From a virus (taxonomy: Duplodnaviria > Heunggongvirae > Uroviricota > Caudoviricetes): a stretch of 64,000 bases of DNA. The stretch is from IMG/VR virus record IMGVR_UViG_3300012665_001805; one strand, 5' to 3'. The notes below the pieces were generated by a model that was not told where the DNA came from, ran no database searches, and worked only from the letters and a program-made list of their open reading frames with translations. Shown piece by piece: positions 2,633-45,822 of the stretch (positions within the stretch are counted from its first letter, which is position 1; each line of letters begins with the position of its first letter). A program made the position numbers and the translations under genes.

Positions 2633-3436
2633 TTATTCTTCTTCTTGATTAAAAGCGTAATGAACTCCGTCCTTGTAGATCGAAAAGTAGATTTTAAAAT
2701 CTTTATCGCAATCACGATTCTTTTCGAAATGCATTGATCGCTCTAAACCATCTCTACTACGCTCAACTTTACAAAACGCTTCCATCATGTGTTTCAATCG
2801 GTTTGATCCTGCAAATTCATCTGATTTAGTCATTTGCTGGATATTGATGAATGAAGTATAGTAATTTTGTTTGTTTTTACCTTTTTTAACTTCATCTTGC
2901 AATTTCAAAAACCATGATTCAGCTTGTTTTGATGTACCTCCGTTTTGATCTTTGTACATATCTAAAATCTCTGCGATTGAATCAACTGCGATTACATCAT
3001 ATCCTAAGCTGAATACGTGTTCAACTGTTTCTTTGATACTATCCATATGATCTTTCAAAAACAATGTTTGAACACAACCAAATGCAGGCATTCTTCGACA
3101 GTATTTGTAATGACCGATTTGATCCATTTCGCCTTGTACTAACAAGCATTTCAAACCTTGCATTGTAAACTTAGATAACATATCCATTACTAACGTTGAC
3201 TTACCTGAACCAGGACCACCTGCGATCATCATTGATGTACCTGGCATTAAACCACCATCAGTAGATAAAATCAAATCTACTTCAGTATTTGTTTTTAATG
3301 GTACGAATAATGATTCGTTGAATGATAAATCGTTACCTCTAAATAACTTTACTGATGCAGGGTTGAATGATGTTTCAACTTTTTGTTTTGCAGGACGACC
3401 TCTTTTCACTGTAATTTCTCTTTTTTCAATCTTCAT
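2633..3436 (-). CDS. RecA-superfamily ATPase (DnaB C-terminal/Sak4-like), N-terminal AT-hook-like KRGRPAK
   Basis: Walker A GGPGSGKST, Walker B hhhhD (VIAVDSIAE), 267 aa. Confidence 0.55.
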   Translation of the reverse strand: MKIEKREITVKRGRPAKQKVETSFNPASVKLFRGNDLSFNESLFVPLKTNTEVDLILSTDGGLMPGTSMMIAGGPGSGKSTLVMDMLSKFTMQGLKCLLVQGEMDQIGHYKYCRRMPAFGCVQTLFLKDHMDSIKETVEHVFSLGYDVIAVDSIAEILDMYKDQNGGTSKQAESWFLKLQDEVKKGKNKQNYYTSFINIQQMTKSDEFAGSNRLKHMMEAFCKVERSRDGLERSMHFEKNRDCDKDFKIYFSIYKDGVHYAFNQEEE

Positions 3437-4301: not shown

Positions 4302-5249
4302 TTACTTTTTATTTAAGTTCAAAAACATTCCACTATTACCAGCAACTGTGGTTGGCAATTTTCCATCCCATGCTTGAGCTTTCAAATACTCAATATACAT
4401 TGGTGTGATTTGGTTTTGTTTAATCTTAATCGCTTGAGCAGCAGCATATGCATTAATGATCAATTCGGCTGAATCGGCACGAGCAACAGCTACTTTACGT
4501 TTACCCTCAGCAATCGCTGTTAAAGCTTGTTGTTCAGATGCTTCAGCTTGTTGAATCGCTTTAGTTTTGGCGATAATCGATTCTTGTAATGCCTCAGGTG
4601 GTGTGATATTAGTACGTAATTGAGACACATTAAACCATTTTGCTAATCGAATATTACACTCAGCAACAATAGATGCTTCAAATGCTTGACGATGTCCAAA
4701 GATACTATCAACTTCCCAAGTATTAGCTACGTCATTCACAGCTCCAATAATGGCATTTTTCAACCAACCTTGTTCAACTTGTTTAACATCTAAACGTAAA
4801 TTCACGAACATATCACCAATATTAGACTCTTTTAATGAGTAGTTGAATGTTGGTTTGATTGTAGCTGGGAATCCACCTTTAGTAATTACTTGTTGATCAT
4901 CGTACTCAATATGTTGTTGAAATGTAGGGAACTCTAACATTTGCTCAGTCCATGTGTTGTATACTACCCAACCTGTTTTGTATTGGTAATTTGTAACACC
5001 ACGTTGAGAACCAACTAAACTTACTTTGATACCTTTATAACCACTATCTACTTTTTCAATAGCAAATGGTTGAATTAATCCACCAATAATCGTTATTAGT
5101 AAGATAGCTACAACCTTTGTCACTAAAGACGAGTTCATCACTTCTCGATCATCACCCCAACGATCTTTTTTTACAACTGTTTTTTCTCCCTTAATGAAGG
5201 TTAAACCGGCAACAATTAAGCCTAATAGAATAATAATTCCTGTAATCAT
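4302..5249 (-). CDS. SPFH/band-7 (prohibitin/stomatin/HflC-like) membrane protein
   Basis: N-terminal TM helix, SPFH core, C-terminal Ala/Glu-rich coiled coil QQAEASEQQALTAIAEGKRKVAVARADSAE typical of HflK/C-flotillin family. Confidence 0.7.
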   Translation of the reverse strand: MITGIIILLGLIVAGLTFIKGEKTVVKKDRWGDDREVMNSSLVTKVVAILLITIIGGLIQPFAIEKVDSGYKGIKVSLVGSQRGVTNYQYKTGWVVYNTWTEQMLEFPTFQQHIEYDDQQVITKGGFPATIKPTFNYSLKESNIGDMFVNLRLDVKQVEQGWLKNAIIGAVNDVANTWEVDSIFGHRQAFEASIVAECNIRLAKWFNVSQLRTNITPPEALQESIIAKTKAIQQAEASEQQALTAIAEGKRKVAVARADSAELIINAYAAAQAIKIKQNQITPMYIEYLKAQAWDGKLPTTVAGNSGMFLNLNKK

Positions 5250-5261
5250 AACTTTTTTAAA

Positions 5262-5450
5262 TTAAATTAATTTATATAACATTTTACCTAACCGCATACT
5301 AACATAAAGCCATAATCCAGTTGCGGCAAGCTGGATATAACCATTTACTTCTCTACTTACTATATATTCGCCTAATAGTCCAGTAAGTATTCCGAATGAA
5401 AGAACAATTCCTGTGGCTTTCATTACTTTGTTTACGTGTTTATTTTTCAT
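5262..5450 (-). CDS. small membrane protein
   Basis: 62 aa, two TM helices; variant promoter motif AATATACAAA at 5459-5468. Confidence 0.3.
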   Translation of the reverse strand: MKNKHVNKVMKATGIVLSFGILTGLLGEYIVSREVNGYIQLAATGLWLYVSMRLGKMLYKLI

Positions 5451-5492
5451 TTCTCTTAATATACAAAACTTTTATTTAAATAACAAGTACTT

Positions 5493-5750
5493 TTAAAATC
5501 TTGCTAATGGATCTGATGGTGGAAGATTAATTGTTAATTCTCCTTTTGAGTTAAGTGCTTTCTCAATTGGTTTTACTTCAACTGATACTCCATTGATTTT
5601 GAATTGTCCACCTTGTTTGAGTAATTTTTTAAATAGGATTTCATGGCTTTCTTTCCATTCTTCACTTGCTTTGATGATAGTCGCTTTGTCGACTTCAACA
5701 CCATCAAATTTGATGATGATTCCTTTTCTGATTGATTGTGGTGATATCAT
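5493..5750 (-). CDS. hypothetical protein
   Basis: 85 aa. Confidence 0.3.
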   Translation of the reverse strand: MISPQSIRKGIIIKFDGVEVDKATIIKASEEWKESHEILFKKLLKQGGQFKINGVSVEVKPIEKALNSKGELTINLPPSDPLARF

Positions 5751-6016
5751 TTGCTTTCTATAACTTTAACTTGCTTAATTGCTCGTGTTGGGATTTGTAC
5801 TCGTTCATTGTTTGTTTTTCGAATATCAACTACACCTGAATCGTAGTATGTAATTCGGTTTGCTTCAAATGTAGTATTGTCTTCAAGAGTAACTACATAT
5901 GTTTCTTCAGATTCTCGTTTTATTATAAAAATAAGGGCGGATGATGTAAATAACATTACAAGCACAATAGATAATGGTTTTAATATTCTCATAATTTTTA
6001 TTTTTAATCCCACCAT
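5747..6016 (-). CDS. membrane-anchored hypothetical protein
   Basis: 89 aa, N-terminal TM. Confidence 0.3.
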   Translation of the reverse strand: MVGLKIKIMRILKPLSIVLVMLFTSSALIFIIKRESEETYVVTLEDNTTFEANRITYYDSGVVDIRKTNNERVQIPTRAIKQVKVIESK

Positions 6017-6543
6017 CCACTAATATTCTCTTCCATTATCTTAAATAGTAATTTACGAGAACGTTCTTGGTTGTTGCGGGCGATTTCTATTGCAATTCGG
6101 TGATTATCTTTATCTGTTTTGTCAATTAATTTATGTTGACGTCTATATTTGTAGAAATAGTCAATTAAATCATCTCGTGTGATGGTTGACTCCATCCTAA
6201 ACCATTTTTCAGTTTCATCAGTTGGAACAAACTCAATATCCTGGTCTAGATATTCCATGAATTCATACATGTATAGATCTTCTTGTTGGATACGAGCTAA
6301 ACGAGCACATAATAACATTTTTTCAGCATCACGTTTTGCTCTAGTATGCCAATCTCTATCACCAATATACTTGGCTTGTTTTTCCAATTTATGGATTAAC
6401 ACCTCATAGATAAATGTTTGATCCCAATCTCTATCTTTCCAAATAGTTGGAAACCAGTTCCATAGGTTTTTGACACCGTTGGCGAAATCTCTGTGGTAAT
6501 ATCTACCTTCAAATTTCCACCATAATTGAATTTTTTCTAACAT
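6004..6543 (-). CDS. hypothetical protein
   Basis: 179 aa, Trp/Tyr-rich. Confidence 0.3.
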   Translation of the reverse strand: MLEKIQLWWKFEGRYYHRDFANGVKNLWNWFPTIWKDRDWDQTFIYEVLIHKLEKQAKYIGDRDWHTRAKRDAEKMLLCARLARIQQEDLYMYEFMEYLDQDIEFVPTDETEKWFRMESTITRDDLIDYFYKYRRQHKLIDKTDKDNHRIAIEIARNNQERSRKLLFKIMEENISGWWD

Positions 6544-6553
6544 AACTATATTT

Positions 6554-7705
6554 TTAGTGACTATCTCCTACGTTGTGTTTTTCTCCGTAAATTAAATAGT
6601 CTGGGTTAATTACTTTAGCTACTTTGTTTCGTTCTCCACTTATATGTTTGATAACAATCCCTTCATGTGGTACTTTAGTTCCTTCAATGAAGTTGTTGAA
6701 TACAAACTTGTCTTGGATTTCTTGTGACCATGATCCTTTATATAGTACTTCTACATATGGTAACTCTATAATGTATTTAATTGTATATTTTGATGATAAT
6801 ACTTCTACATATTTTCCATTTTGTACTAAATCAAATCCAACAAATTCCATATCTTTCAAACCATATTCATAGTTCTTTTGGATACCTGCTCCATAAATTT
6901 CCCCATAAATGATGATACCTGATCCAATATCTTCTGGGTTGGAGTAGTTGGTAACAAAATCCCAAAGTTTTTCTTTGATCTTATATTTCTCAGCAATTGT
7001 TCTCCAAACATCAGTTGAGTAAAAACCTTGTGAGTCAGATCCTTTTTCAACGTTATGTGAACCATAAACATATTCATATTCTGCCCATTCATTACCAAAG
7101 AATCGTCTTACTTTATCCCATAAAGACAATTTACTTTTCTTTACAATACCATAACGAGCATTTGTACCATGGATTTTACGAGTAATCTCAATGTGATCTT
7201 CACTTGTAAACATTCCTGTAACATTTTTCAAGTTAGGGAACTTGTAATACACTCCAAAGTTTTGGTTTTGGTGGTATTTGAATTTACGGCCTGAAGCTAA
7301 TTGGATTTGTACTGTAGGTGGTTCATATTTGAAGATACCTAAAACTTCCATCAAATCTTCCCCTTCTTTCCAGTAATAACCAATGCCTGTAGCATATTGC
7401 TTTTTCATTTGAGGTAAGCTATTAAAAGGAATAATCAAACACTCAGAATAAACACCTCGTAATTTCACTGTTCTTACACGTTGACCTTTACGTAGATAAT
7501 TAGTTACTCCAATTGAATCTGATATTTCTTGAGGGATAACAGCATCTGTTGTTGCTACAACAACATACTCACCTACGGTGTATTCTCCTTTTTTAACAAT
7601 AGCATTCCAACCACCAACAACTGCTAATTCAATATTGTCAGCACCTTCAATTACTTTTACTTCTGTTACGATTCCTACGTAACATACACTATTATTATTT
7701 TCCAT
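6554..7705 (-). CDS. RNA ligase, Rnl2 family, with N-terminal tRNA-binding OB-fold (Trbp111/CsaA-like) domain
   Basis: motif I RKIHGTNARYGIV (T4 Rnl2 EKIHGTNF), motif IYGEIYGAGIQKNYEYG vs Rnl2 VFGEFAGPGIQKNVDYG; first ~110 aa fit the tRNA-binding OB pattern VGxVxEVxxIxGADxIxLxxVxGG...GxYVVVA. Confidence 0.75.
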   Translation of the reverse strand: MENNNSVCYVGIVTEVKVIEGADNIELAVVGGWNAIVKKGEYTVGEYVVVATTDAVIPQEISDSIGVTNYLRKGQRVRTVKLRGVYSECLIIPFNSLPQMKKQYATGIGYYWKEGEDLMEVLGIFKYEPPTVQIQLASGRKFKYHQNQNFGVYYKFPNLKNVTGMFTSEDHIEITRKIHGTNARYGIVKKSKLSLWDKVRRFFGNEWAEYEYVYGSHNVEKGSDSQGFYSTDVWRTIAEKYKIKEKLWDFVTNYSNPEDIGSGIIIYGEIYGAGIQKNYEYGLKDMEFVGFDLVQNGKYVEVLSSKYTIKYIIELPYVEVLYKGSWSQEIQDKFVFNNFIEGTKVPHEGIVIKHISGERNKVAKVINPDYLIYGEKHNVGDSH

Positions 7706-7714
7706 TTCTTACAA

Positions 7715-7912
7715 TTATTTTAAATTATTAAATGCTTCTGTTAATTTTGCATAAATAAAATCTATTTCTTCCTGAGATTCTATGGGGAATGACTCAGTTG
7801 TATCAATCTTTAATTCCATCCATCCTTCTGTGTGGTGTATTTCAATATCAATAAAATCATCACCTTTTTGAATTGAAAAGGCATCCATGTTCATTTTAAT
7901 TCCTGTAGACAT
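7715..7912 (-). CDS. hypothetical protein
   Basis: 65 aa acidic. Confidence 0.25.
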   Translation of the reverse strand: MSTGIKMNMDAFSIQKGDDFIDIEIHHTEGWMELKIDTTESFPIESQEEIDFIYAKLTEAFNNLK

Positions 7913-7915
7913 TTT

Positions 7916-8299
7916 TTATAATTTTATTTCAAATCGGTTTTTCATTTGTTCTAATTTATCTGCTGGTACTCCATGCTGGTTTACCCCCTCATGGCGATTT
8001 TCAACTACAATGGAATGTACTCGATAATCATACTGTTCAGCTAATTTATAATAAGCTTCCATTTCCCATTCTTGAGTGAATGTATTTGATACAACTACGT
8101 TATATCCCCGTTTCATCCAACCCTTAGCTTGAAATTGACACCACTCATGAGCTTGTTTAAGTTTAGTAGGATCAAATTGATAAATTCCATTCACCACAAA
8201 AAACTCATCTGCCTCAACATGTTGATTACATATCAGTTTAGCTAATGTTGATTTACCACTACCTGGTAGCCCGCGAAGTAAGATTAGTTCTTTTTTCAT
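7916..8299 (-). CDS. P-loop polynucleotide 5'-kinase-like protein (T4 Pnk kinase-domain-like)
   Basis: LLRGLPGSGKSTLAKL Walker A at N-terminus as in T4 Pnk (IGCPGSGKST); 127 aa; adjacent to RNA ligase. Confidence 0.55.
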   Translation of the reverse strand: MKKELILLRGLPGSGKSTLAKLICNQHVEADEFFVVNGIYQFDPTKLKQAHEWCQFQAKGWMKRGYNVVVSNTFTQEWEMEAYYKLAEQYDYRVHSIVVENRHEGVNQHGVPADKLEQMKNRFEIKL

Positions 8300-8334
8300 T
8301 TTAAAATAAATCGTTTAAATGTTCAGGTACAGTA

Positions 8335-8571
8335 TCAGCTATGTGCTTCTTCCAAAACCTCTTGATCATCCTCAATAATTTCTGCATCTTGTATAGTTTC
8401 TACAAATAAAAAATGTGTTTCATTTCGCAACACATGATCTACCTTTGGTAAACCATCTCTCCATATTTGTACACCTTCTAAATCAACTTTACCTTCTTTA
8501 TCTGTAAATAAAGAAATAGCGATTGTACGGTGAATTATATAGTATTTGTCGTTGTGTTTATAGAAACTCAT
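8335..8571 (-). CDS. hypothetical protein
   Basis: 78 aa. Confidence 0.25.
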   Translation of the reverse strand: MSFYKHNDKYYIIHRTIAISLFTDKEGKVDLEGVQIWRDGLPKVDHVLRNETHFLFVETIQDAEIIEDDQEVLEEAHS

Positions 8572-8861
8572 TTGATGTCGTATTGTTTTTTAAATGACTC
8601 AATAAACGATTCTCCTAATCCAATATCAACTATCTCAAAGTTAGATGGGATAAGTGGTTTACGTTTGGATGGGTTAATAATAGAATCAACACCATCTTCT
8701 GTTATTAACATATAATGTTTTTTACCTGTTGGTTTTTTATACACAACTACTGTTGGTATTTTCTTTTCAGCTGGTCTACCTTTATTTTCGTGTACATTCA
8801 TAGATTGTGTATGGGGGTAAAATGGTTTGAATTCGGTTATTTGAGTTGAAATAAAATACAC
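8568..8861 (-). CDS. hypothetical protein
   Basis: 97 aa. Confidence 0.25.
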   Translation of the reverse strand: MYFISTQITEFKPFYPHTQSMNVHENKGRPAEKKIPTVVVYKKPTGKKHYMLITEDGVDSIINPSKRKPLIPSNFEIVDIGLGESFIESFKKQYDIK

Positions 8862-9066
8862 TATCGTCTGTTGTTAGATATTCATTTGTGTATGCTATTG
8901 CATCCTGTTTCTCTCCATCAACTAATACTTTCCCTTCAATACGGTATTGGTAAAATTGAGAATATGCATCACAACTTGACTTATTTGGTCTACATGAAAA
9001 TAATAAAAAACCAATTGTAATACCTGCTAATAAATGTAAAATGTAGTAATAGATTTGTTTTTTCAT
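8782..9066 (-). CDS. lipoprotein
   Basis: signal peptide with LLFSC lipobox; promoter motif at 9108-9117. Confidence 0.35.
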   Translation of the reverse strand: MKKQIYYYILHLLAGITIGFLLFSCRPNKSSCDAYSQFYQYRIEGKVLVDGEKQDAIAYTNEYLTTDDSVFYFNSNNRIQTILPPYTIYECTRK

Positions 9067-9428
9067 AGTTTATATAATTCGTAAATACTATTTTCTGTTC
9101 TAAATTTAATATACGAAAGATCATCTGCTAAATCAAGGATTTCAGTAATTACTGTTGTTTGCCAAGTGAAGAAATGGTTAAATGGAGACATAAGTAATGA
9201 ACGACCAATTGCTGGTTCATCATGTTTTGCTTGGAAACGACCTTCATCATTCCATTCAAGCCAAATTATCGCTTTGGATTTTTTGTTTAATCCATCTCCT
9301 TCTCTAACTAATCTCCAATTAAATTCATTGTCAACTAAACCCATCAATTCAGCTTGTTGGGCATCCATTTCAAGTTCCCCGTTTTCATTCAGTGAAACTA
9401 ATGCTTTTGGTTGTACTCCTCCTATCAT
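9063..9428 (-). CDS. hypothetical protein
   Basis: 121 aa. Confidence 0.3.
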   Translation of the reverse strand: MIGGVQPKALVSLNENGELEMDAQQAELMGLVDNEFNWRLVREGDGLNKKSKAIIWLEWNDEGRFQAKHDEPAIGRSLLMSPFNHFFTWQTTVITEILDLADDLSYIKFRTENSIYELYKL

Positions 9429-9679
9429 TGTTCTTCTATATTATATAAACCTAATTCTTGATCTAATCTCATCATTTCGATGAGTGCTTGTTCGCGTTGC
9501 TCTTTTAAAGCGGCATCATAATCCTCTATACACATTGCTACTCTAATACCATCAATAGTACCAATTACTTCTTTATGAAGTCGATACTTGAATTGAAATG
9601 TTTTAAAGTTGATTTCAACTACTTTTTTATATGCATCTTGTCCCAAGACACGAATCATTACTGATTGTTTCATAACCAA
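9425..9679 (-). CDS. hypothetical protein
   Basis: 84 aa. Confidence 0.3.
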   Translation of the reverse strand: MVMKQSVMIRVLGQDAYKKVVEINFKTFQFKYRLHKEVIGTIDGIRVAMCIEDYDAALKEQREQALIEMMRLDQELGLYNIEEQ

Positions 9680-10377
9680 GTTATTTCATTTGTTATTGGA
9701 TCCCATTCAAATGTGAATGGTAAATTTGCATACATGTATCGTTCATTCAATACGGATGCATTAAAGAAATGTGTATGACCGTTGTAATAGTGACCATAAC
9801 CACCATGAACATGTCCAAATACGTGAATTTTTGGTTTAATTTCATCTATTCGATAACGCAACATTTCACATCCAACTCGTATGTTTTGTCCACCTGGGAT
9901 GTCTTGATAGCCAAATGGAGGTCCATGTGTTACTAAAATATCTGTATCAGTTGGGATAGCATCCCATTTTGCTTTTAATTCTTCTCCATTGCGAGGCAAA
10001 TTAAATGCCCAATTGAAAAATTCCGGTTGCCAAGGTGAACCATAGATTTTAGCAGTTTTTACATTTGGATCATGAGGATCACTATCTCCAACTACCATCC
10101 AATCATCCTGTAAATAATCAATTGTTTTATATCCAGTTAAGATACCTTGTGCCTCTTCTGGTTCATCTTCCATCCAACGATCATGGTTACCAGCAATCAG
10201 TACTTTGAAATCATAGGTAGATATTTTATCAAACCAATTGAAAAACTCCATTGCTTCCATTGGATTGTAACCCGAGTTCATAAAGTCACCAGCATGGATT
10301 AACAAATCACCTCCTGGTAAATCACCATTTAGTTGGTTGTGTTTTGTATGTGTATCTGAAATTAATGTAACCTTCAT
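9670..10377 (-). CDS. calcineurin-like metallophosphoesterase
   Basis: motifs D-x-H (ISDTHTKH), GDLLIHAGDF, GNHD, GHVHGG; 235 aa. Confidence 0.8.
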   Translation of the reverse strand: MKVTLISDTHTKHNQLNGDLPGGDLLIHAGDFMNSGYNPMEAMEFFNWFDKISTYDFKVLIAGNHDRWMEDEPEEAQGILTGYKTIDYLQDDWMVVGDSDPHDPNVKTAKIYGSPWQPEFFNWAFNLPRNGEELKAKWDAIPTDTDILVTHGPPFGYQDIPGGQNIRVGCEMLRYRIDEIKPKIHVFGHVHGGYGHYYNGHTHFFNASVLNERYMYANLPFTFEWDPITNEITWL

Positions 10378-10513
10378 TGTTTAATTTTTAGCTGAATATA
10401 AATGCAACTGTGGCTATTAATAGGAACCATCCTATAACAGTTAATGCTATTTTAAGATCATCTTTCATTTTTCCTTATTTTTAAATAAATATACGAAAGA
10501 GATATTGGAAATC

Positions 10514-10714
10514 CTACCCTAAAATTATTTGTTTTGCTAATTCTTTTTGTTTTTCATGTTTGTGCATGTTTTCCATTGTTTTAGAAACCATGTTTAAGTC
10601 ATCATTCATTGACTTAAGAATATCTTCCATATTAGAAATTTTTTCATACAGTTTCATAACTGAGTACATCAAGCCTGCTACAGCTAAACATAGTAATCCG
10701 ACGATAAGCATCAT
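10514..10714 (-). CDS. small membrane protein
   Basis: 66 aa, N-terminal TM. Confidence 0.3.
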   Translation of the reverse strand: MMLIVGLLCLAVAGLMYSVMKLYEKISNMEDILKSMNDDLNMVSKTMENMHKHEKQKELAKQIILG

Positions 10715-10735
10715 ATATTTGATTTTAAATGTAAC

Positions 10736-10790
10736 ATAAAAAACCCCTAGCAGTTTCTATTGATCAGATAGTCTTACTAGGGGGTGTTAG
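10736..10790 (-). terminator. intrinsic terminator closing the tRNA array (minus sense CCCCTAG...CTAGGGG + TTTTTT)
   Basis: 7-bp GC-rich stem with internal palindrome TGATCA, followed on minus strand by T6. Confidence 0.5.
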
Positions 10791-10986
10791 TGGTTATATG
10801 GGTGTTTATAGAGGTAACGCGTTTACACCTATAAATCTTCCCAACTTCCCAATAACGAGAAGACCATCCAAGTGAGCAGATCTAACGGGATGCCCGATGG
10901 TACTGAGCCTACGTTATCTCAACGCAGGGGGGCATTCCATAGCAACCGTATCACTATGGGGTTCCGTTAACATGTAACGGTGGAGG

Positions 10987-11060
10987 TGGCCCATCCTGGA
11001 CTCGAACCAGGGACTTTCACATTATGAGTGTGCTACTCTAACCAACTGAGTTAAAAGGCC
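10987..11060 (-). tRNA. tRNA-Met (anticodon CAT)
   Basis: minus-strand cloverleaf; T-arm CCCTGG-TTCGAGT-CCAGG; anticodon loop CTCATAA. Confidence 0.6.
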
Positions 11061-11191
11061 ATAACATAATACAAGCTCCCACCTACCTTCTTGTATTTTG
11101 AACTCAACTCTGCCAGCAGTTCACCCGGTGCCACGATACTTAACTATCTGCACTCCCTCTGACAATGTTAAGTTGCCGTATGAGCCAGTCG

Positions 11192-11290
11192 TAGTCAGGA
11201 CAGGACTCGAACCTGTATGAGCTACTTCAATTACCTTGTAGGCTCTCCACTACGGTGCTTGTAGCGTCTAACCAATTCCGCCACCTGACT
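11192..11290 (-). tRNA. type-II tRNA-like (Leu-like D-arm TGGCGGAATTGGTTAGACGC), anticodon arm unresolved; 99 nt, possibly interrupted/pseudo
   Basis: perfect 7-bp acceptor AGTCAGG/CCTGACT, T-arm ACAGG-TTCGAGT-CCTGT; GCTAC...GTAGC flank a 35-nt insert-like segment. Confidence 0.4.
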
Positions 11291-11426
11291 ATTTTAAAAA
11301 TTAACTTACTAATTATAACCTATGCACGCTTGAGTTACAATCCCATTTACCCCAGTGAAACATTCGTACCTATTTTCACCCTCCTTATTGCCTATGTTCT
11401 TTTTCAGCTCCTCGGTTAATTGTAGT

Positions 11427-11499
11427 AGCGGGGGCCAGACTCGAACTGGCGGTCTCTGGGTTATGAGCCCAGCGAGTGAAACCATCTCCTCCACCCCGC
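11427..11499 (-). tRNA. tRNA-fMet initiator (CAT)
   Basis: GCGGGGTGGAG...GGGCTCATAACCC...CCCCCGC; near-identical architecture to bacterial initiator tRNA incl. three G-C pairs in the anticodon stem. Confidence 0.75.
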
Positions 11500-11507
11500 T
11501 ATATTTG

Positions 11508-11578
11508 ATTCTCATGAAGGATTCGAACCTTCGTCTGCCCGCTCAACGCGACCCGACTTACCACTTGTCCAATGAGAA
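11508..11578 (-). tRNA. tRNA, anticodon ambiguous (loop CGTTGAG, TTG/Gln-like)
   Basis: acceptor TTCTCAT/ATGAGAA, T-arm GAAGG-TTCGAAT-CCTTC; anticodon stem imperfect. Confidence 0.4.
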
Positions 11579-11676
11579 AACTGTTACACACTTTCATCGG
11601 CAAATTACTAATGCATATCAGACCCTTATAGTATTGGAAGCACTTGCCGGTACTTCACTTTCCTACCCAGGTTTTG

Positions 11677-11748
11677 TATTCGGTACGGGGTTCGAACCCG
11701 TGCCTCTGCCGTGAAAGGGCAGCGTGTTAACCACTTCACTAACCGAAC
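11677..11748 (-). tRNA. tRNA-Glu (TTC)
   Basis: anticodon arm CTGCC-CTTTCAC-GGCAG; T-arm ACGGG-TTCGAAC-CCCGT. Confidence 0.65.
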
Positions 11749-11870
11749 ATAAAAAACATAATACTACTTTAATAACGTTTACCCAATTTTACGACTGCAC
11801 GCTTTACCTTGTTAGACCGTTTTTTGGGTAACGACCCCTAACACATCCTACCTACCCATATTATGTTTTG

Positions 11871-11942
11871 CGGTCCATGCGAGAATCGAACTCGCGGCAC
11901 CACCGTGACAGGGTGGTATGTTAGCCACTACACCAATGGACC
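11871..11942 (-). tRNA. tRNA-Asp (GTC)
   Basis: anticodon arm CCACC-CTGTCAC-GGTGG; acceptor GGTCCAT/ATGGACC. Confidence 0.65.
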
Positions 11943-11948
11943 AGTGTG

Positions 11949-12022
11949 TGGAGGATAACGGATTCGAACCGTTGACCCCTGCAGTGCAAGTGCAGTGCTC
12001 TAGCCAGCTGAGCTAATCCCCC
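11949..12022 (-). tRNA. tRNA-Ala (TGC) with G3-U70
   Basis: GGGGGATTAGCTCAGCTGGCTAGAGCA...CTGCA-CTTGCAC-TGCAG; G3:U70 identity pair present. Confidence 0.7.
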
Positions 12023-12114
12023 ATTTAGTCTTTTCCTTACCTCTTAACAGCTCACATTGCCCGTCCGGTGTTACTGCCGGATGCTTACCTCTATGAGGAG
12101 TAACTGTTACATTG

Positions 12115-12188
12115 AGCAGGCAGTGGGACTCGAACCCACAACCCTCGCCTTGGAAGGGCGACGCTCTAGCCAATTGAGCTATGCCTGC
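12115..12188 (-). tRNA. tRNA-Gly (TCC)
   Basis: acceptor GCAGGCA/TGCCTGC; anticodon arm TCGCC-CTTCCAA-GGCGA. Confidence 0.7.
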
Positions 12189-12194
12189 AATTTG

Positions 12195-12276
12195 TACACA
12201 AGGAGAGACTCGAACTCTCACGCCTTTCGGCACCGGATCCTAAGTCCGGCGTGACTACCAATTCCACCACTCGTGC
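12195..12276 (-). tRNA. tRNA-Leu (TAG), type II
   Basis: D-arm GTGGAATTGGTAGTCAC, anticodon arm CCGGA-CTTAGGA-TCCGG, variable hairpin GCC-GAAA-GGC. Confidence 0.65.
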
Positions 12277-12284
12277 ATTTTAAA

Positions 12285-12304
12285 TTTCCAATATGTCAAT
12301 GAAC
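12285..12304 (-). promoter_or_regulatory. conserved 20-nt element (minus sense GTTCATTGACATATTGGAAA) 8 nt upstream of tRNA-Leu 5' end
   Basis: second copy at 13894-13913, 9 nt upstream of tRNA-Gln; contains TTGACA. Confidence 0.4.
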
Positions 12305-12324
12305 TTTCTTTTCTTATAAATTCA

Positions 12325-12334
12325 ATATACGAAA
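12325..12334 (-). promoter_or_regulatory. promoter-like motif TTCGTATATT upstream of tRNA-Leu(TAG) sub-cluster
   Basis: AATATACGAA on plus strand, ~50 nt upstream of tRNA 5' end. Confidence 0.45.
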
Positions 12335-12361
12335 AATATATTGGAAAGCCAAGTTTTTATG

Positions 12362-12431
12362 AGCTCAAGGTAAGAATCGAACTTACTCTATAGGTTTTGC
12401 AGACCTACCGGCCTCCAAGACCATCCTGAGC
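12362..12431 (-). tRNA. tRNA-Cys (GCA)
   Basis: anticodon arm TAGGT-CTGCAAA-ACCTA; T-arm GTAAG-TTCGATT-CTTAC. Confidence 0.55.
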
Positions 12432-12437
12432 ATTGTG

Positions 12438-12510
12438 TGGACAGAGAGGGGTTCGAACCCCCGACGCTCGGCTCTTCAGGCCGACGCTCTACCAACTGAG
12501 CTACCTGTCC
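12438..12510 (-). tRNA. tRNA-Phe (GAA)
   Basis: D-arm TAGCTCAGTTGGTAGAGC; anticodon arm TCGGC-CTGAAGA-GCCGA. Confidence 0.7.
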
Positions 12511-12569
12511 TGGCCTTTTTTAGGGTTTTTAACTAGAACCCAAGGACGGAACGACCTATAAACTATTTG

Positions 12570-12641
12570 CGCGACCCCAAGGACTCGAACCCTGACCAAC
12601 GGATTTGGAATCCGTTATGCTACCAATTACACCAAAGAAGC
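12570..12641 (-). tRNA. tRNA-Trp (CCA)-like; acceptor stem does not pair as read (possible pseudo/aberrant)
   Basis: anticodon arm ACGGA-TTCCAAA-TCCGT and Trp-like D-arm GTGTAATTGGTAGCAT, T-loop TTCGAGT; 5' GCTTCTT vs 3' GGGTCGC mismatched. Confidence 0.35.
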
Positions 12642-12678
12642 AATTCATCCGACCTAGCTCGGATCACACATCGGATCG

Positions 12679-12751
12679 TACCCCCACAGAGATTCAAACT
12701 CCAATCTTCCCCTTAGAAGGGGGATGTTCTATTCAATTGAACTATAAGGGC
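12679..12751 (-). tRNA. tRNA-Arg (TCT)
   Basis: D-arm GTTC-AATTGAATA-GAAC; anticodon arm TCCCC-CTTCTAA-GGGGA; acceptor with three G-U pairs. Confidence 0.55.
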
Positions 12752-12756
12752 ATTTG

Positions 12757-12829
12757 TACCCTCAAAGTGACTCGAACACCTATCTCTCGGTTCGTAGCCG
12801 AGCGTTCTATCCATTGAACTATGTGGGCA
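12757..12829 (-). tRNA. tRNA-Arg (ACG)
   Basis: anticodon arm CTCGG-CTACGAA-CCGAG; D-arm TAGTTCAATGGATAGAAC. Confidence 0.6.
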
Positions 12830-12833
12830 GTTG

Positions 12834-12917
12834 TACCTCGAGCCGGGATCGAACCGGCACGCCCATACGAGCACAGGATTTTAAGTCCGGCGTGACTACC
12901 AATTCCACCACCGAGGC
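12834..12917 (-). tRNA. tRNA-Leu (TAA), type II
   Basis: Leu-like D-arm GTGGAATTGGTAGTCAC; anticodon loop CTTAAAA; long variable arm; T-arm GCCGG-TTCGATC-CCGGC. Confidence 0.6.
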
Positions 12918-12925
12918 ATTTGTTG

Positions 12926-12999
12926 GGTGTATGGTGAGATTTGAACCCACGACCTCTTGATTCACAATCAAGCACTCTTACCAACTGAGCTACATACAC
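12926..12999 (-). tRNA. tRNA-His (GTG)
   Basis: acceptor GTGTATG/CATACAC; anticodon arm CTTGA-TTGTGAA-TCAAG; T-loop TTCAAAT. Confidence 0.65.
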
Positions 13000-13001
13000 A
13001 G

Positions 13002-13073
13002 TACCGTATGTTGGGTTCGAACCAACCCAAAGCAGGATATGAGCCCACCTCGTCCACCTAGGACCTACGGTAT
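13002..13073 (-). tRNA. tRNA with CAT anticodon (elongator Met or Ile2/lysidine type)
   Basis: anticodon arm GTGGG-CTCATAT-CCTGC; T-arm GTTGG-TTCGAAC-CCAAC; third CAT tRNA in the array. Confidence 0.5.
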
Positions 13074-13077
13074 AAAG

Positions 13078-13162
13078 CGGAAAGCAGTGAACACGATCCA
13101 CATACCTTTCAGTACCACTCGCTTAGCAGGCGGTGACAGCACCCTGACTGCTTTACTTTCCA
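13078..13162 (-). tRNA. tRNA-Ser (GCT)-like, type II, non-canonical T-arm
   Basis: acceptor GGAAAGT/GCTTTCC, anticodon loop CTGCTAA, variable arm TACTGAAAGGTATG shared with tRNA-Ser(TGA); T-loop lacks TTCGA. Confidence 0.4.
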
Positions 13163-13167
13163 ATTGT

Positions 13168-13241
13168 GCGCTTAACTGGACTCGAACCAATAACCTTCCG
13201 CGTATCAGGCGGATGCTCTAACCAATTGAGCTATAAACGCA
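13168..13241 (-). tRNA. tRNA-Ile (GAT)
   Basis: anticodon arm TCCGC-CTGATAC-GCGGA; D-arm TAGCTCAATTGGTTAGAGC. Confidence 0.65.
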
Positions 13242-13247
13242 TTAAGC

Positions 13248-13318
13248 GGACCAGGGAGGGATCGAACCTCCGACCCAGCGATTAACAGTCGCTTGCTCTA
13301 CCTCTGAGCTACTGGTCC
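13248..13318 (-). tRNA. tRNA-Asn (GTT)
   Basis: acceptor GGACCAG/CTGGTCC; anticodon arm AGCGA-CTGTTAA-TCGCT. Confidence 0.7.
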
Positions 13319-13323
13319 AATTG

Positions 13324-13406
13324 TGGGGCTTGGTGGACTCGAACCACTCCCGATTAAGGACAGGATTTACAGTCCCGCTGCCGTATCCGAACGACTTTCA
13401 ATCCCC
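13324..13406 (-). tRNA. tRNA-Tyr (GTA), type II
   Basis: anticodon arm CGGGA-CTGTAAA-TCCTG; long variable arm; T-loop TTCGAGT. Confidence 0.55.
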
Positions 13407-13412
13407 TTTTTG

Positions 13413-13485
13413 TACACCCTCTAGGATTCGAACCTAGGACATTTTGCATGTAAAACAAACGCTCTACCAACTGAGCTAAAGGTGC
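13413..13485 (-). tRNA. tRNA-Val (TAC)
   Basis: D-arm TAGCTCAGTTGGTAGAGC; anticodon arm TTTGT-TTTACAT-GCAAA; T-arm CTAGG-TTCGAAT-CCTAG. Confidence 0.55.
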
Positions 13486-13490
13486 ATTTG

Positions 13491-13565
13491 TGATCCCGGT
13501 GGGGCTCGAACCCACGACTCCCTAATTAAAAGTTAGGTGCTCTAAACCAACTGAGCTACGAGATC
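13491..13565 (-). tRNA. tRNA-Lys (TTT)
   Basis: anticodon arm CCTAA-CTTTTAA-TTAGG; T-arm GTGGG-TTCGAGC-CCCAC. Confidence 0.7.
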
Positions 13566-13635
13566 TTTCTGTTTGCGACTCTTGTCGCTCTTATCACTTT
13601 CCATAATTTCTCGTTTTTTTATGGTGAATAAATAG

Positions 13636-13709
13636 TCTAAGTGGCAGGGCTCGAACCTGCGATCTCGTGGTCCCAAACCACGCGGATTACCAACTTTCCC
13701 ACACCTAGT
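13636..13709 (-). tRNA. tRNA-Pro (TGG)
   Basis: C1-G72 acceptor CTAGGTG/CACTTAG; anticodon arm CGTGG-TTTGGGA-CCACG. Confidence 0.65.
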
Positions 13710-13714
13710 TAAAA

Positions 13715-13800
13715 TGGCGGAAGGCGTAGGACTCGAACCCACAATACCTTTCAGTACTACTGCTTTTCAAGAGCAGCTCCTCATCCAGCCGGATGCCTTC
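13715..13800 (-). tRNA. tRNA-Ser (TGA), type II, CCA encoded
   Basis: acceptor GGAAGGC/GCCTTCC perfect, discriminator G then CCA; anticodon arm CTGCT-CTTGAAA-AGCAG; long variable arm. Confidence 0.65.
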
Positions 13801-13810
13801 CATTTTATTG

Positions 13811-13884
13811 ATCCCCCGGGAGGAGTCGAACCTCCAAACTCCACAGTCAAAGTGTGGTGACTTTGCCAATTCGTCTACAGGGGA
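13811..13884 (-). tRNA. tRNA-Gln (TTG)
   Basis: anticodon arm CCACA-CTTTGAC-TGTGG; T-arm GGAGG-TTCGACT-CCTCC. Confidence 0.55.
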
Positions 13885-13893
13885 ATTTATAGC

Positions 13894-13913
13894 TTTCCAA
13901 TATGTCAAAGAAC
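13894..13913 (-). promoter_or_regulatory. second copy of conserved 20-nt element (minus sense GTTCTTTGACATATTGGAAA) immediately upstream of tRNA-Gln
   Basis: 19/20 identical to 12285-12304. Confidence 0.4.
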
Positions 13914-13924
13914 GTTTTCTTCTG

Positions 13925-13996
13925 AGCTCCGTACCAGATTCGAACTGATTTCTCTTGATTACAAGTCAAGCGCATCGCCAACAATGCTTACAGAGC
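13925..13996 (-). tRNA. tRNA-Thr (TGT)
   Basis: anticodon arm CTTGA-CTTGTAA-TCAAG; T-arm ATCAG-TTCGAAT-CTGGT. Confidence 0.6.
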
Positions 13997-14020
13997 AATA
14001 AAATTTGTGGGATAAAATAA

Positions 14021-14052
14021 AAAAACCCGGATCTTGCGAACCCGGGTTATAT
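14021..14052 (-). terminator. intrinsic terminator upstream (minus sense) of tRNA array: CCCGGG-TTCGCAAGAT-CCGGG + T7
   Basis: plus strand AAAAAAACCCGGATCTTGCGAACCCGGG. Confidence 0.55.
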
Positions 14053-14417
14053 ATTTTGGTTGTTTTTACACAACTAACTTATCCCGGGTTTGAATATGCG
14101 CGGTTGTTTAACGTCAATATTATTATACGCAAAGCCACACACTGTTCCTTCAATCGTACTAAACGATCTAAGGGGCCAATTTGATATGTGTAACATTGTT
14201 TGCATTTGTATATTTTTATATTCGTTAATACGTATGTGTTTTTTCTTTATCTTCACAGAACATACGAAATTTTTTTTATCTCTCCACTCTTTTTTTAATA
14301 TTCTTGTCTTTTCTTTTAGAAACTGCTGTAATCCAGCTTACCCATTCCTTAACTTGCTCTACTCTTTGTTTTGAACTTATCTTACTCATCTTTTTATTTT
14401 TATTAAATTTACTAACT

Positions 14418-14876
14418 CTATTTCACTAATCCAAGCTCTTTTTCAATTTCTTTCATATGCTTGCATTTTTTATCTTTTGCTCTCCATCTACCAGGACAAT
14501 CACAAGTTAATCCTCTTGGGGTCATTTTTACAACATATGTACCACCTCCACTTGATGATTCAAACTTCCATGTTTGTGATGGTGGTTTTACTTCAGGTGA
14601 TTTCTCAACTACCTTTGGTCTATCATCTATTTCAATAATATCATCTAATGTTGTTTTAGGATGACATTCTACATGCGCTGGCATAATGACATATCGTTCT
14701 CCAAGTTTTGCAATTGCAACACATAAATAAGCATGTTTTTTTACTTTATACTTAAATGGTCTGCAATGACAAAATGTAATATTGTCACGTTTAGGATAAA
14801 TTTTAGCTTCATCGTTTGGTACTATACGGGTTTCTTTTCTCCCATCACCATATTCTATAATTAACTCCTTTAACAT
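14418..14876 (-). CDS. SWIM zinc-finger protein
   Basis: C-terminal CxC-x(n)-CxH: LTCDCPGRWRAKDKKCKHM; promoter motif at 14894-14903. Confidence 0.5.
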   Translation of the reverse strand: MLKELIIEYGDGRKETRIVPNDEAKIYPKRDNITFCHCRPFKYKVKKHAYLCVAIAKLGERYVIMPAHVECHPKTTLDDIIEIDDRPKVVEKSPEVKPPSQTWKFESSSGGGTYVVKMTPRGLTCDCPGRWRAKDKKCKHMKEIEKELGLVK

Positions 14877-16910: not shown

Positions 16911-18083
16911 TTAATTTTTAATAAGCTCTTGTTGATATTCTATTAAACTAATTATCTCTATGGTAAATATGTCTAACTCAAATTTTCCTACCTCTCCACT
17001 TTCTTGTATAATGCTAGGCATTTGCATTAATAATTGGAAATTTTGTTGGGTCAATTGGTTAGCATCAAATTCAATTATAATGTCGTTTTCACTAATTGGG
17101 TCATTGTTATTTAAAGTAAATACTCGTTTTAATAAATTAAATGATGTATTTTCTTGTTCTCGATCTATATAAATATCAACTATATCTTGATTTTCAATAT
17201 AAATGCGATCACACCATGGTTCTAAAGCAGTTAATAATTGACCCGGGCAATTTTTTACCACGTAAGCAATGTTATATTTGGGTGCAACGATAGGTTCCAT
17301 TAAAGCGGTATGATTCACGTTTGAACCCCATTTACGAATAAATTCTAACGTAGATTTATCCATATCTTTTCTCCACTGTTCATGTCTTTCTTTATCACCA
17401 TCAAAACTACCTGCTCCTCTACCTGTTAAATGATATACTAATGAATTCCAAGGTTGAATAAATTCAAAACCATTTAATTTCATTCGATTAAATACATCCG
17501 AATCTTCTCTACACGAGTGCATAATTGGATCATGTCCACCCATTTCTAAGAATTCTTCTTTATACATCATCCAAGGGGCAAAAATACCATTTGTAATTTT
17601 ATCATCATCGGAATGTTCTTCTACATATTGATCAAATTCATCTTTTTTAAATTCTTCAGGATACATTCCAAAATCAATTAAGATTTTTTCTCCATTATTT
17701 GGGTGTAAAGGTGGTTCGATACGAGTAGCACATATTACTCTTTTTGATTTTAGATGATTATATGCTTTCCAATCTGCATTTTTACCTAACATCATATCAG
17801 CATGGAATATCATGAATACATCTGTTGTTGAATGTTCAATACAGTAATCATATGCTTTTCCAATTCCAAATAAACTTTCACCTAAATTTGGATTAACAAA
17901 ATATTTTAAATTATACTCATCTTTTACTTGCTCTAACCATTCAACTGTTCCATCTTCATCTGAATCAACGAAAACTATAATTTCATGGTCTTTTCTATAT
18001 GCATTTTCTCTAATAGAGGGGATACAAGTTTTAAGGTATCTTAAATTTGATTTACTGGGGATACAGAATGTTATTTGTTTCAT
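16911..18083 (-). CDS. family-2 (GT-A fold) glycosyltransferase
   Basis: N-terminal FCIPSKSNLRYLKTCIPSI...EIIVFVDSDEDGT typical GT2 signature; 390 aa. Confidence 0.6.
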   Translation of the reverse strand: MKQITFCIPSKSNLRYLKTCIPSIRENAYRKDHEIIVFVDSDEDGTVEWLEQVKDEYNLKYFVNPNLGESLFGIGKAYDYCIEHSTTDVFMIFHADMMLGKNADWKAYNHLKSKRVICATRIEPPLHPNNGEKILIDFGMYPEEFKKDEFDQYVEEHSDDDKITNGIFAPWMMYKEEFLEMGGHDPIMHSCREDSDVFNRMKLNGFEFIQPWNSLVYHLTGRGAGSFDGDKERHEQWRKDMDKSTLEFIRKWGSNVNHTALMEPIVAPKYNIAYVVKNCPGQLLTALEPWCDRIYIENQDIVDIYIDREQENTSFNLLKRVFTLNNNDPISENDIIIEFDANQLTQQNFQLLMQMPSIIQESGEVGKFELDIFTIEIISLIEYQQELIKN

Positions 18084-18757: not shown

Positions 18758-18759
18758 TC

Positions 18760-20272: not shown

Positions 20273-20446
20273 AGTACATTTTTATCATTTATTAAAATCA
20301 TTCTACCATCTTCAGTAGTTAACTTAGTAAATTGACCTTGTTTGATATACTCAGATCTAATATTTTCAAAGGTTCGTTTTTCACCACCTACAAAGTGGAT
20401 TATTTGAGTTACTACTTTACCTTGTTTTTTAATACTAGATTGTAAA

Positions 20447-22605: not shown

Positions 22606-22606
22606 A

Positions 22607-23827: not shown

Positions 23828-23828
23828 T

Positions 23829-28771: not shown

Positions 28772-28776
28772 ATATC

Positions 28777-30530: not shown

Positions 30531-30539
30531 AACTATTTT

Positions 30540-45089: not shown

Positions 45090-45345
45090 ATAACTTAATT
45101 AATTTATGTATTTAATGTATGAAGGATATTTGGGGTATCCAAGTTAAAATGAGGGGAGCGAATCAAAATCAATAATCTAGTCCGGGTTCAAAGAGATTTA
45201 AATTTATTGAAATGCGCGAGGATTGATGTTTTGAGTTTTTGAATTTTGATTGGGCGTACCTTATCATCATCACTTATCCGCTATGTGGCTCATAGTTGAA
45301 TTGTAAGAACATCGAAAATCAATTTCTCATCACTCCCTACTCAAA

Positions 45346-45774: not shown

Positions 45775-45822
45775 GACTTTTATTTTTGTTATAATATACT
45801 AAATTTATTTACATTATCCAAG

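Follow-up and report, generated by a model that had tools for sequence, protein, structure and literature searches.

The 64,000-nucleotide (nt) stretch of tailed-phage DNA analysed here (the window; Caudoviricetes, IMG/VR record IMGVR_UViG_3300012665_001805) carries a candidate RNA-repair locus on its minus strand, in which the genes for an ATP-dependent RNA ligase, a small P-loop kinase and a metallophosphoesterase (MPE1) lie downstream of an array of 25 tRNA genes. The source is a large Flavobacterium-type, Immutovirus-like phage, represented by a contig of at least 171.5 kb. Of the 75 window open reading frames (ORFs) of at least 100 aa, 35 are shared with Flavobacterium phage immuto. This kinship is visible at the protein level only: megablast of positions 6000-10500 against the INPHARED phage collection returned no match, and the window phage has no close sequenced cultured relative. 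The features of the locus are as follows.

6554-7705, minus strand: ATP-dependent RNA ligase, 383 aa, Rnl5 architecture (Pfam, PHROG, NCBIfam and PDB matches)
7301-7705, minus strand: N-terminal OB domain of the ligase, residues 1-135, the Rnl5 signature (PF21189; homology to the N domain of NgrRnl)
6554-7300, minus strand: nucleotidyltransferase (NTase) domain of the ligase, residues 136-383, with motifs closest to those of T4 Rnl2
7916-8299, minus strand: stand-alone polynucleotide-5'-kinase-like P-loop protein, 127 aa (AAA_33 and PHROG matches, AlphaFold2 [AF2] model compared by Foldseek, adjacency to the ligase)
9670-10377, minus strand: MPE1, MPPED2/Rv0805-like (class III) metallophosphodiesterase, 235 aa (PDB, PHROG and Pfam matches)
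10985-13996, minus strand: array of 25 tRNA genes covering all 20 amino acids (ARAGORN)
6004-6543, minus strand: conserved ORF of 179 aa, 10 nt downstream of the ligase gene, with no family match
7715-7912, minus strand: ORF of 65 aa between the kinase and ligase genes, with no Pfam or PHROG match
9063-9428, minus strand: ORF of 121 aa, function unknown (phrog_38150, 3.6e-19)

The three principal ORFs, together with the motifs quoted for them in an earlier reading made from the bare sequence (the original prediction), are real: all three lie on the minus strand exactly at the coordinates given there, and their domain matches are far beyond chance. The neighbouring tRNA array proved to be complete for the 20 amino acids and encoded on the same strand, whereas the distance of 300 nt claimed between the kinase and ligase genes is actually a gap of 210 nt that contains the 65-aa ORF. 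In the order of transcription, the array is followed by a 66-aa ORF, MPE1, five small ORFs, the kinase, the 65-aa ORF, the ligase and the 179-aa ORF. This string is tightly packed, the stops and starts of the five small ORFs between MPE1 and the kinase overlapping or abutting each other. The end of the array is 608 nt from the MPE1 gene and 3.3 kb from the ligase gene, the array being upstream of both. No terminator was predicted between the array and the ligase gene. The single minus-strand terminator-like hairpin found within positions 5000-14500 (at 14048-14024) is located upstream of the array, so the array and the string of repair genes could share transcripts. A sigma-70 promoter scan was uninformative (25 hits versus 33 expected). 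The 65-aa ORF, which is also called on the identical contig L084, had no homologue in the 80 related loci searched by tblastn and is probably filler, not a conserved part of the cassette.

Judging from its sequence, the ligase has the architecture of Rnl5 enzymes, such as DraRnl and NgrRnl, and resembles T4 Rnl2 only at the level of the NTase motifs. An OB module at the N terminus, followed by an NTase domain that ends the protein without any further appendage, is what defines the Rnl5 family (PMC4408790, PMC7261155), and this is the domain order seen here: Pfam assigns residues 12-93 to PF21189 (“PHA02142 OB-fold,” 1.2e-13) and residues 171-366 to PF09414 (RNA_ligase, 5e-14), the latter bearing out the assignment to the RNA ligases that the original prediction proposed to check in this way. 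The ligase also matches phrog_968 (“RNA ligase”) at 1.3e-53. The NCBIfam model of the DraRnl family, TIGR02306 (RNA_lig_DRB0094), is matched over its full length (model positions 10-339 of 341) at 4e-26, with a score of 91.6 bits that is under the trusted cutoff of 151 bits, whereas the Rnl2 model TIGR02307 aligns only over a short stretch (positions 91-134 of 326) with an E value of 1e-3. The best solved relative is the RNA ligase of Naegleria gruberi, NgrRnl (5cot), which is found through its N domain at 6.6e-13 and, in a profile search of the PDB, at 1.8e-19; this profile search gave no full-length alignment of the NTase domain to NgrRnl, the residue equivalences in that domain being those recognized by inspection of the motifs. 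The NTase domain taken alone retrieves only T4 Rnl2 (2hvq, 1s68) from the PDB sequences, the overall similarity to which is weak (E values of 0.14 to 0.31).

The catalytic motifs of the ligase are readily recognized. Motif I contains K177 (KIHGTN, residues 177-182); motif III contains E269 (GEIYGAGIQ) and opens the segment GEIYGAGIQKNYEYG at residues 268-282; the remaining ones are IIIa (F288/F291-D292), IV (E348/K353, in EGIVIK) and V (K361/K364). The residues K177, E269, E348, K353, K361 and K364 are invariant in 16 homologues with 66-81% identity. At the aligned positions, T4 Rnl2 has EKIHGTN and VFGEFAGPGIQKNVDYG, so that the Rnl2-type pair of KIHGTN and GEIYGAGIQKNYEYG corresponds to EKIHGTN and GEFAGPGIQKNVDYG of the T4 enzyme; motif I is identical in the two proteins and motifs III and IIIa are nearly so (GE..G.GIQKN.(D/E)YG...F..FD). 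However, the window protein ends 19 aa past motif V, lacking the signature C-terminal domain of Rnl2, and has an N-terminal OB domain instead. The label “Rnl2-type ligase” is therefore correct as regards the NTase motifs and the RNA ligase family and incorrect as regards the architecture, which is that of Rnl5. Compared with the characterized Rnl5 enzymes, with which it shares the domain order, motifs I, III, IV and V and two of the N-domain residues, the window ligase has a very divergent NTase domain and about 40 extra residues. Its motif I reads as in T4 Rnl2, with a His in the position of Asp172 of NgrRnl, in place of K-x-D-G; it has no equivalent of the NgrRnl Arg4; and its gene is coupled to that of a kinase, a linkage not reported for either DraRnl or NgrRnl. 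Since the D172A mutant of NgrRnl is active and the N-domain contacts R4, D53 and K121 of that enzyme are functionally redundant (PMC7261155), the departures in motif I and at Arg4 do not argue against activity and, by analogy, would be tolerable.

In the OB domain of the window ligase, D54 and K126 align with D53 and K121 of NgrRnl, the residues that contact the gamma-phosphate of ATP. The N domain of NgrRnl orients the pyrophosphate leaving group during lysine adenylylation and promotes this reaction (PMC7261155). The structures closest to a model of the window OB domain are NgrRnl and then the tRNA-binding OB folds of Trbp111, CsaA and PheRS-B2, which places the modelled domain structurally in the tRNA_bind/Trbp111/CsaA/EMAPII/PheRS-B2 class, with the same variant of the OB fold. 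The original prediction of a Trbp111/CsaA-like domain is upheld at the level of the modelled fold, the N-terminal segment folding as an OB domain as expected; at the level of sequence, the Pfam tRNA_bind profile gave no match to the ligase at E values of 0.1 or below, and PF21189 was the only hit. Nor is this domain a new fusion onto an Rnl2 ligase, as had been thought, but the known defining domain of the Rnl5 family, as indicated by the contrast between the TIGR02306 and TIGR02307 matches.

The product of the second gene, a 127-aa P-loop protein, is well supported by its sequence and its model as polynucleotide-kinase-like. It matches AAA_33 (3.9e-15), phrog_2071 “ATPase” (4.9e-38) and phrog_505 “polynucleotide kinase” (4.8e-11), and its best match among PDB sequences is a Rhizopus RNA 5'-OH kinase (9d8a, 5.5e-4). 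Stand-alone RNA 5'-OH kinases of this kind work in tRNA splicing in Mucorales (PMC11571804). The bacterial Pnkp model TIGR04075 (bacter_Pnkp) gives an E value of only 0.004. In a Foldseek search with the AF2 model (predicted local distance difference test score, pLDDT, of 81), the top match was the kinase domain of Clostridium thermocellum Pnkp (CthPnkp; E value of 1.7e-5, TMq 0.70), followed by LcoKIN, RazKIN and T4 Pnk (also at a TMq of 0.70), with adenosine 5'-phosphosulfate (APS) kinase and PSTK lower in the ranking; the T4 Pnk-like kinase of the original prediction is thus supported in its fold. The P-loop GLPGSGKST (residues G10-T18) and the lid residue R102 are invariant, as is the candidate catalytic residue D31 (in EAD). 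In the model, strand beta-2 spans H27-E29 and D31 comes two residues later, the position expected for a counterpart of the catalytic Asp35 of T4 Pnk, which engages the 5'-OH acceptor. Similarly to the Mucorales kinases RazKIN and LcoKIN, this is a small stand-alone P-loop polynucleotide kinase-like protein encoded separately from the RNA ligase, but it is shorter (127 aa versus 163-208 aa) and lacks the C-terminal G-loop region that confers GTP specificity on those enzymes (PMC11571804). In an exhaustive search at E values of 1e-3 or below, the kinase family comprised 8,926 clusters at 50% identity.

Gene context provides still stronger evidence on the kinase than its sequence and fold. In a ligase-anchored sample of 80 viral contigs encoding a ligase 65-79% identical to that of the window, the kinase gene was found within 10 kb of the ligase gene in 66 loci, including 46 of the 49 that have at least 5 kb of flanking sequence on both sides. 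It is always encoded on the same strand as the ligase and, in 22 loci, no more than 25 nt upstream of it. Deposited phage genomes with an orthologue of the kinase (40-51% identity) number 626. Of the seven cultured lineages inspected, six (Pseudomonas phage Amme-3, Vequintavirus, Pakpunavirus, Saclayvirus, Thalassavirus and Mydovirus) have the orthologue zero or one gene away from an Rnl1-type ligase (PF09511), the exception being a Paracoccus podovirus, in which the kinase is not beside such a ligase. Gene fusions point in the same direction. A scan of 20 proteins, taken from the longer ones in the top 150 kinase matches, showed 10 to be fused to a recognizable second domain: Rnl1 (4 proteins, in both orders), an HD phosphohydrolase (4), the T4-type HAD_PNKP phosphatase (protein P0369) and the Rnl5 OB and NTase domains (protein P0344). 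The last is a 475-aa protein from a 218-kb contig (ENA ERZ1426817), whose gene has an Rnl1 ligase, a 286-aa metallophosphoesterase and a CCA-adding enzyme as neighbours, in what appears to be an RNA-repair island. No fusion of the kinase to a metallophosphoesterase was seen among these 20 relatives. By adjacency and fusion, the kinase is functionally associated with RNA ligases and end-healing phosphatases. Assignment to an unrelated NTPase family (deoxynucleoside monophosphate kinase, zeta toxin or AAA+ protein), a match that would have contradicted the original prediction, was considered and is rejected on account of the fold ranking, the adjacency and the fusions.

MPE1 is most similar to rat MPPED2 (3rl4; residues 4-224, 8.9e-43) and also matches the Metallophos domain (1.4e-14) and phrog_1649 (4.7e-23). 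Its binuclear metal site is complete, with the motifs DTH, GD, GNHD, H150 and GHVH supplying D8/H10, D30, N64/H65, H150 and H188/H190, so that all metal motifs of MPPED1, MPPED2 and Rv0805 are present over the approximately 220 matched residues. Unlike MPPED2, MPE1 is phage encoded, lacks the N-terminal extension of ~60 aa and has a His (in GHVH) where MPPED2 carries Gly252; the deposited mutant chain of MPPED2 also has His at this position. The characterized MPPED/Rv0805 enzymes prefer 2',3'-cAMP, which they convert to 3'- and 2'-AMP, and cleave diesters but not monoesters (PMC10547211). By analogy, MPE1 is a possible 2',3'-cyclic phosphodiesterase, and an enzyme of this type alone would leave a 2'- or 3'-phosphate and no 3'-OH, the characterized members being diesterases only. 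The original prediction compared the phosphoesterase with the Pnkp/Hen1 system of C. thermocellum. The locus does resemble that system in combining a P-loop kinase, a binuclear metallophosphoesterase and adenylyltransferase/ligase chemistry, and in having the CthPnkp kinase domain as the top structural match of its kinase. However, the three window genes are separate, whereas Pnkp is one trifunctional polypeptide; the ligase is not of the Rnl4 type; and MPE1 belongs to the MPPED2 subfamily, not to the Pnkp/lambda-phosphatase type, and is not matched by TIGR04075. A Hen1-type partner was considered and dropped: the Pfam scan of the window, which took in the 44 ORFs of at least 150 aa and, inside positions 6004-10377, the smaller ones as well, revealed no Hen1-like protein among those 44, the sole methyltransferase (24188-25324) being part of a glycan cluster.

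The linkage of MPE1 to the ligase is loose. Of the 80 ligase-anchored loci, 21 have MPE1 no farther than 10 kb from the ligase, on either side and at a median distance of 3.1 kb, and in an MPE1-anchored sample of 80 loci (L094-L173), the ligase was present in 9 and the kinase in 9. Phage immuto has an MPE1 homologue (54% identity) and a homologue of the 179-aa ORF (gp234, two genes upstream of the MPE1 homologue) without the ligase or the kinase. The 179-aa ORF, whose homologues were found in 23 of the 80 ligase loci and 22 of the 80 MPE1 loci, travels with either gene. The most constant neighbour of MPE1 is not the ligase but the 121-aa ORF, with a homologue no more than about 1 kb away in 46 of the 80 MPE1-anchored loci, usually directly downstream, and this pair may hold the clue to the role of MPE1. 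MPE1 belongs to the gene backbone of this phage group and has no conserved partnership with the cassette; its membership in the repair set, which the original prediction proposed, is doubtful.

In the relatives, the usual neighbour of the kinase-ligase pair is a different metallophosphoesterase (MPE2), a protein of ~200 aa that is distantly similar to Aquifex aq_1665. It is encoded in 53 of the 80 ligase loci, for example at L036:2674-3339, L027:11109-11816 and L051:3600-4265; among the 49 loci flanked fully on both sides, the count is 38. In 8 loci, no more than 100 nt separate it from the ligase gene. Phages of the Vequinta, Pakpuna and Amme-3 types likewise have an MPE2-type gene next to that of the kinase, and in the ligase-less phage immuto it is represented by gp237 (L086:21337-22017), directly after the tRNA cluster. 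MPE2 is absent from the 64-kb window; its gene may be located elsewhere on the 171.5-kb source contig. The nearest relatives of the window (L001, L004, L005, L006, L011 and L025) carry MPE1 and no MPE2 within reach, which leaves room for a functional substitution of MPE1 for MPE2. Mutual exclusion of the two near the ligase was considered as well and is rejected, as 15 loci carry both.

The idea of RNA repair by phages goes back to T4, in which Pnkp and Rnl1 counter the anticodon nuclease PrrC. The locus described here shares with that system a phage-encoded 5'-kinase, an ATP-dependent RNA ligase and a heal-and-seal logic, as well as the T4 Pnk-like fold of the kinase, a relative of which (P0369) is fused to the same HAD_PNKP phosphatase; unlike in T4, the kinase has no phosphatase domain and the ligase is Rnl5, not Rnl1. 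Pnkp together with DraRnl-like ligases was reportedly noted in mycobacteriophages by the Shuman laboratory in 2004. Sets of kinase, phosphoesterase, RNA ligase and tRNA genes in large (jumbo) phages have been read as RNA repair (PMC7824862), a published picture that the ligase and kinase genes beside the tRNA array fit. The explanation that we regard as probable, with considerable room for doubt, is that the core of the locus is a two-gene RNA end-healing and sealing cassette, consisting of the kinase and the Rnl5-type ligase and expressed with the tRNA string, which restores cut tRNAs or other structured RNAs. The 127-aa kinase would convert the 5'-OH ends of broken RNA to 5'-phosphates. The ligase would adenylylate itself on K177 with the aid of its N-terminal OB domain, pass the AMP to the 5'-phosphate and then join this end to an RNA 3'-OH. 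Encoded in one gene string with the 25-tRNA array, the cassette would most probably repair tRNAs or structured RNAs cut by ribonucleases of the host defences. MPE1 could open a 2',3'-cyclic phosphate, although the step that forms the 3'-OH is not confidently accounted for in the window. The cassette is mobile, inserted in a variable region beside the tRNA array of an Immutovirus-like phage. Its domains, catalytic motifs, fold matches, conserved adjacency and fusions are directly observed, and from them we infer what the enzymes do, that their substrate is RNA (tRNA) and that they counter host defences.

Several observations weigh against the repair of cut tRNAs by such a cassette. The kinase family has an invariant Phe (F34 in the window protein) where T4 Pnk has Arg38, a residue three positions past the catalytic Asp that presumably binds the 3'-phosphate of the terminal nucleotide. 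The kinase is also devoid of a phosphatase domain, and as no 3'-healing enzyme of the HAD, HD or 2H type was found in the Pfam scan of the 44 ORFs of at least 150 aa, the pathway seen in the window is incomplete. Arrays of at least 7 tRNA genes lie within 10 kb of the ligase in just about a third of the related loci (20 of the 60 scanned). Finally, characterized Rnl5 enzymes seal nicks in duplexes with an RNA 3'-OH strand and are not known to seal breaks in anticodon loops, which is the speciality of Rnl1 and Rnl4, their physiological substrates being unknown (PMC4408790, PMC5397189). In nicked duplexes, these enzymes join an RNA 3'-OH to a 5'-phosphate of either DNA or RNA (PMC4408790), which could also mean that DNA or RNA-DNA junctions are what the kinase and ligase work on, rather than tRNA, the ligase sealing nicks with a short ribonucleotide tract at the 3'-OH end and the kinase mending 5'-OH DNA ends, for example in RNA-primed or RNA-patched repair intermediates of the phage genome. 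Loss of DraRnl sensitizes Deinococcus radiodurans to ionizing radiation (PMC5397189); Pnk-family kinases, including the Mucorales enzyme, phosphorylate both DNA and RNA (PMC11571804); and an ATP-dependent DNA ligase is encoded close to the kinase-ligase pair in several cultured phages. Nevertheless, action on DNA appears very improbable, given that the kinase family pairs equally often with Rnl1, a type tailored to breaks in RNA stem-loops (PMC4408790), that the kinase-Rnl5 fusion P0344 is encoded beside a CCA-adding enzyme and an Rnl1 ligase, that the proximity of the cassette to tRNA arrays is above the random expectation for a genome of 170-290 kb, and that the OB domain of the ligase is, in its modelled structure, of the tRNA-binding class. 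In a further reading, the OB domain would dock the ligase onto tRNA, making it a tRNA-dedicated Rnl5, and the MPPED2-like enzyme would be the matching activity that opens the 2',3'-cyclic phosphate ends of RNA. We consider this combination rather improbable; if true, it would supply the first physiological substrates for Rnl5 and MPPED, two families without a known biological role.

As for MPE1, it could be the dedicated 3' healer of a complete three-enzyme module, opening the cyclic phosphate and clearing the remaining phosphate in the repair of anticodon-nuclease cuts, by analogy with Pnkp/Hen1 or T4 Pnkp/Rnl1. Consistent with this, the three genes form one packed, codirectional string downstream of the tRNA array, the order tRNA-MPE1-kinase-ligase-o6004 (the 179-aa ORF) is kept in the closest relative (L001), the six related loci named above have MPE1 and no MPE2 within reach, and many phages have a metallophosphoesterase of another subfamily next to their kinase-ligase pair. 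The preference of MPPED/Rv0805-type enzymes for 2',3'-cAMP (PMC10547211) and the retention in MPE1 of the GHVH His that is lost in MPPED2 would suit such a role, and a 737-aa family, phrog_8238, is weakly matched by both the kinase (positions 2-109) and MPE1 (positions 176-247). Such a module is nonetheless unlikely in view of the loose linkage in both samples, the constancy of the unrelated 121-aa ORF as the neighbour of MPE1, the presence of MPE1 in immuto without ligase or kinase, the absence of a Hen1 from the scanned window ORFs and the finding that, among the 20 relatives scanned, the kinase is fused to HD and HAD_PNKP domains and never to a metallophosphoesterase; moreover, the characterized MPPED enzymes, as diesterases, would leave a 2'- or 3'-phosphate (PMC10547211). 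With a chance that we put at not quite even, MPE1 is instead independent of the ligase and acts on soluble cyclic nucleotides or small phosphodiesters, either removing 2',3'-cNMPs that arise from RNA decay or destroying nucleotides of host immune signalling, its proximity to the cassette reflecting a shared variable region by the tRNA genes. The strong similarity to MPPED2, whose family hydrolyses 2',3'- and 3',5'-cyclic nucleotides (PMC10547211), favours such independence, as do the conserved 121-aa partner, the immuto gene and the wide distribution of MPE1 in ligase-less Bacteroidota-type phages (crAss-like phages, for example, and 72 records of Flavobacterium phages, among them 60-kb podoviruses); calcineurin-like phosphodiesterases have also been proposed as anti-signal enzymes in jumbo phages (PMC7824862). 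Against it speak the tight, codirectional packing of MPE1 with the kinase-ligase string in the window and in L001 and the recurrence of metallophosphoesterases, as a class, beside phage RNA ligases. The two-gene cassette of kinase and ligase, which leaves the part played by MPE1 aside, remains the preferred explanation of the locus, and proximity alone is no ground for annotating MPE1 as a member of the module.

All components of the locus belong to known families, and their combination is a known and common theme of phage RNA repair; because repair by such gene sets is already an established idea for phages, the locus confirms more than it overturns. Its practical value lies in better annotation and in a defined set of proteins for biochemistry. 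The ~130-aa kinase family, with its approximately 9,000 clusters, is currently annotated mostly just as “ATPase” or “AAA domain,” and a possible increment of this work is the well-supported assignment of the family as 5'-kinases that partner phage RNA ligases, those of the Rnl1 or Rnl5 type interchangeably. Another possible increment is the structural placement of the Rnl5 N domain in the tRNA-binding OB class, which offers a testable hint as to the substrates of Rnl5.

Three of the tRNA genes in the array have the anticodon CAT (10985-11060, 11425-11500 and 13001-13071), at least one of which may be an initiator or a lysidine-modified tRNA-Ile instead of an elongator tRNA-Met; there are two tRNA-Gln(TTG) genes. 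Two related jumbo-phage contigs (229-238 kb) additionally encode a transfer-messenger RNA (L056:2396-2771 and L065:1871-2246) with the tag peptide DVELSTMTFEDVMSFVGADYAIAA, which adjoins their arrays of 24 tRNA genes; the kinase-ligase pair is located downstream.

Elsewhere in the window, all on the minus strand, positions 44391-50662 carry a complete-looking set of 7-deazaguanine (queuosine/archaeosine-type) genes, comprising a GTP cyclohydrolase I (44391-45089), a phosphoribosyltransferase (45823-46317), a radical-SAM QueE-like protein (46317-47099), QueD/PTPS (47390-47866), QueC (48657-49556) and an ORF (49865-50662) whose product is 34% identical to the DpdA DNA-guanine transglycosylase of immuto. 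This set suggests that the phage DNA is modified. A long sugar-modification cluster at 16911-31979 is syntenic with a similar cluster of immuto and encodes family 1 and family 2 glycosyltransferases, a DegT/WecE aminotransferase, an RmlD-like reductase, a methyltransferase and a DUF707 protein. At one end of the window, two paralogous DUF932 proteins are encoded 0.8 kb apart (55-864 and 1684-2430), followed by a KaiC/RecA-like ATPase (2633-3436) and an SPFH/Band-7 protein (4302-5249). The region 37567-39502 encodes a phage GroEL (545 aa) with an upstream GroES-like ORF (39197-39502), an arrangement that is likewise found in immuto.

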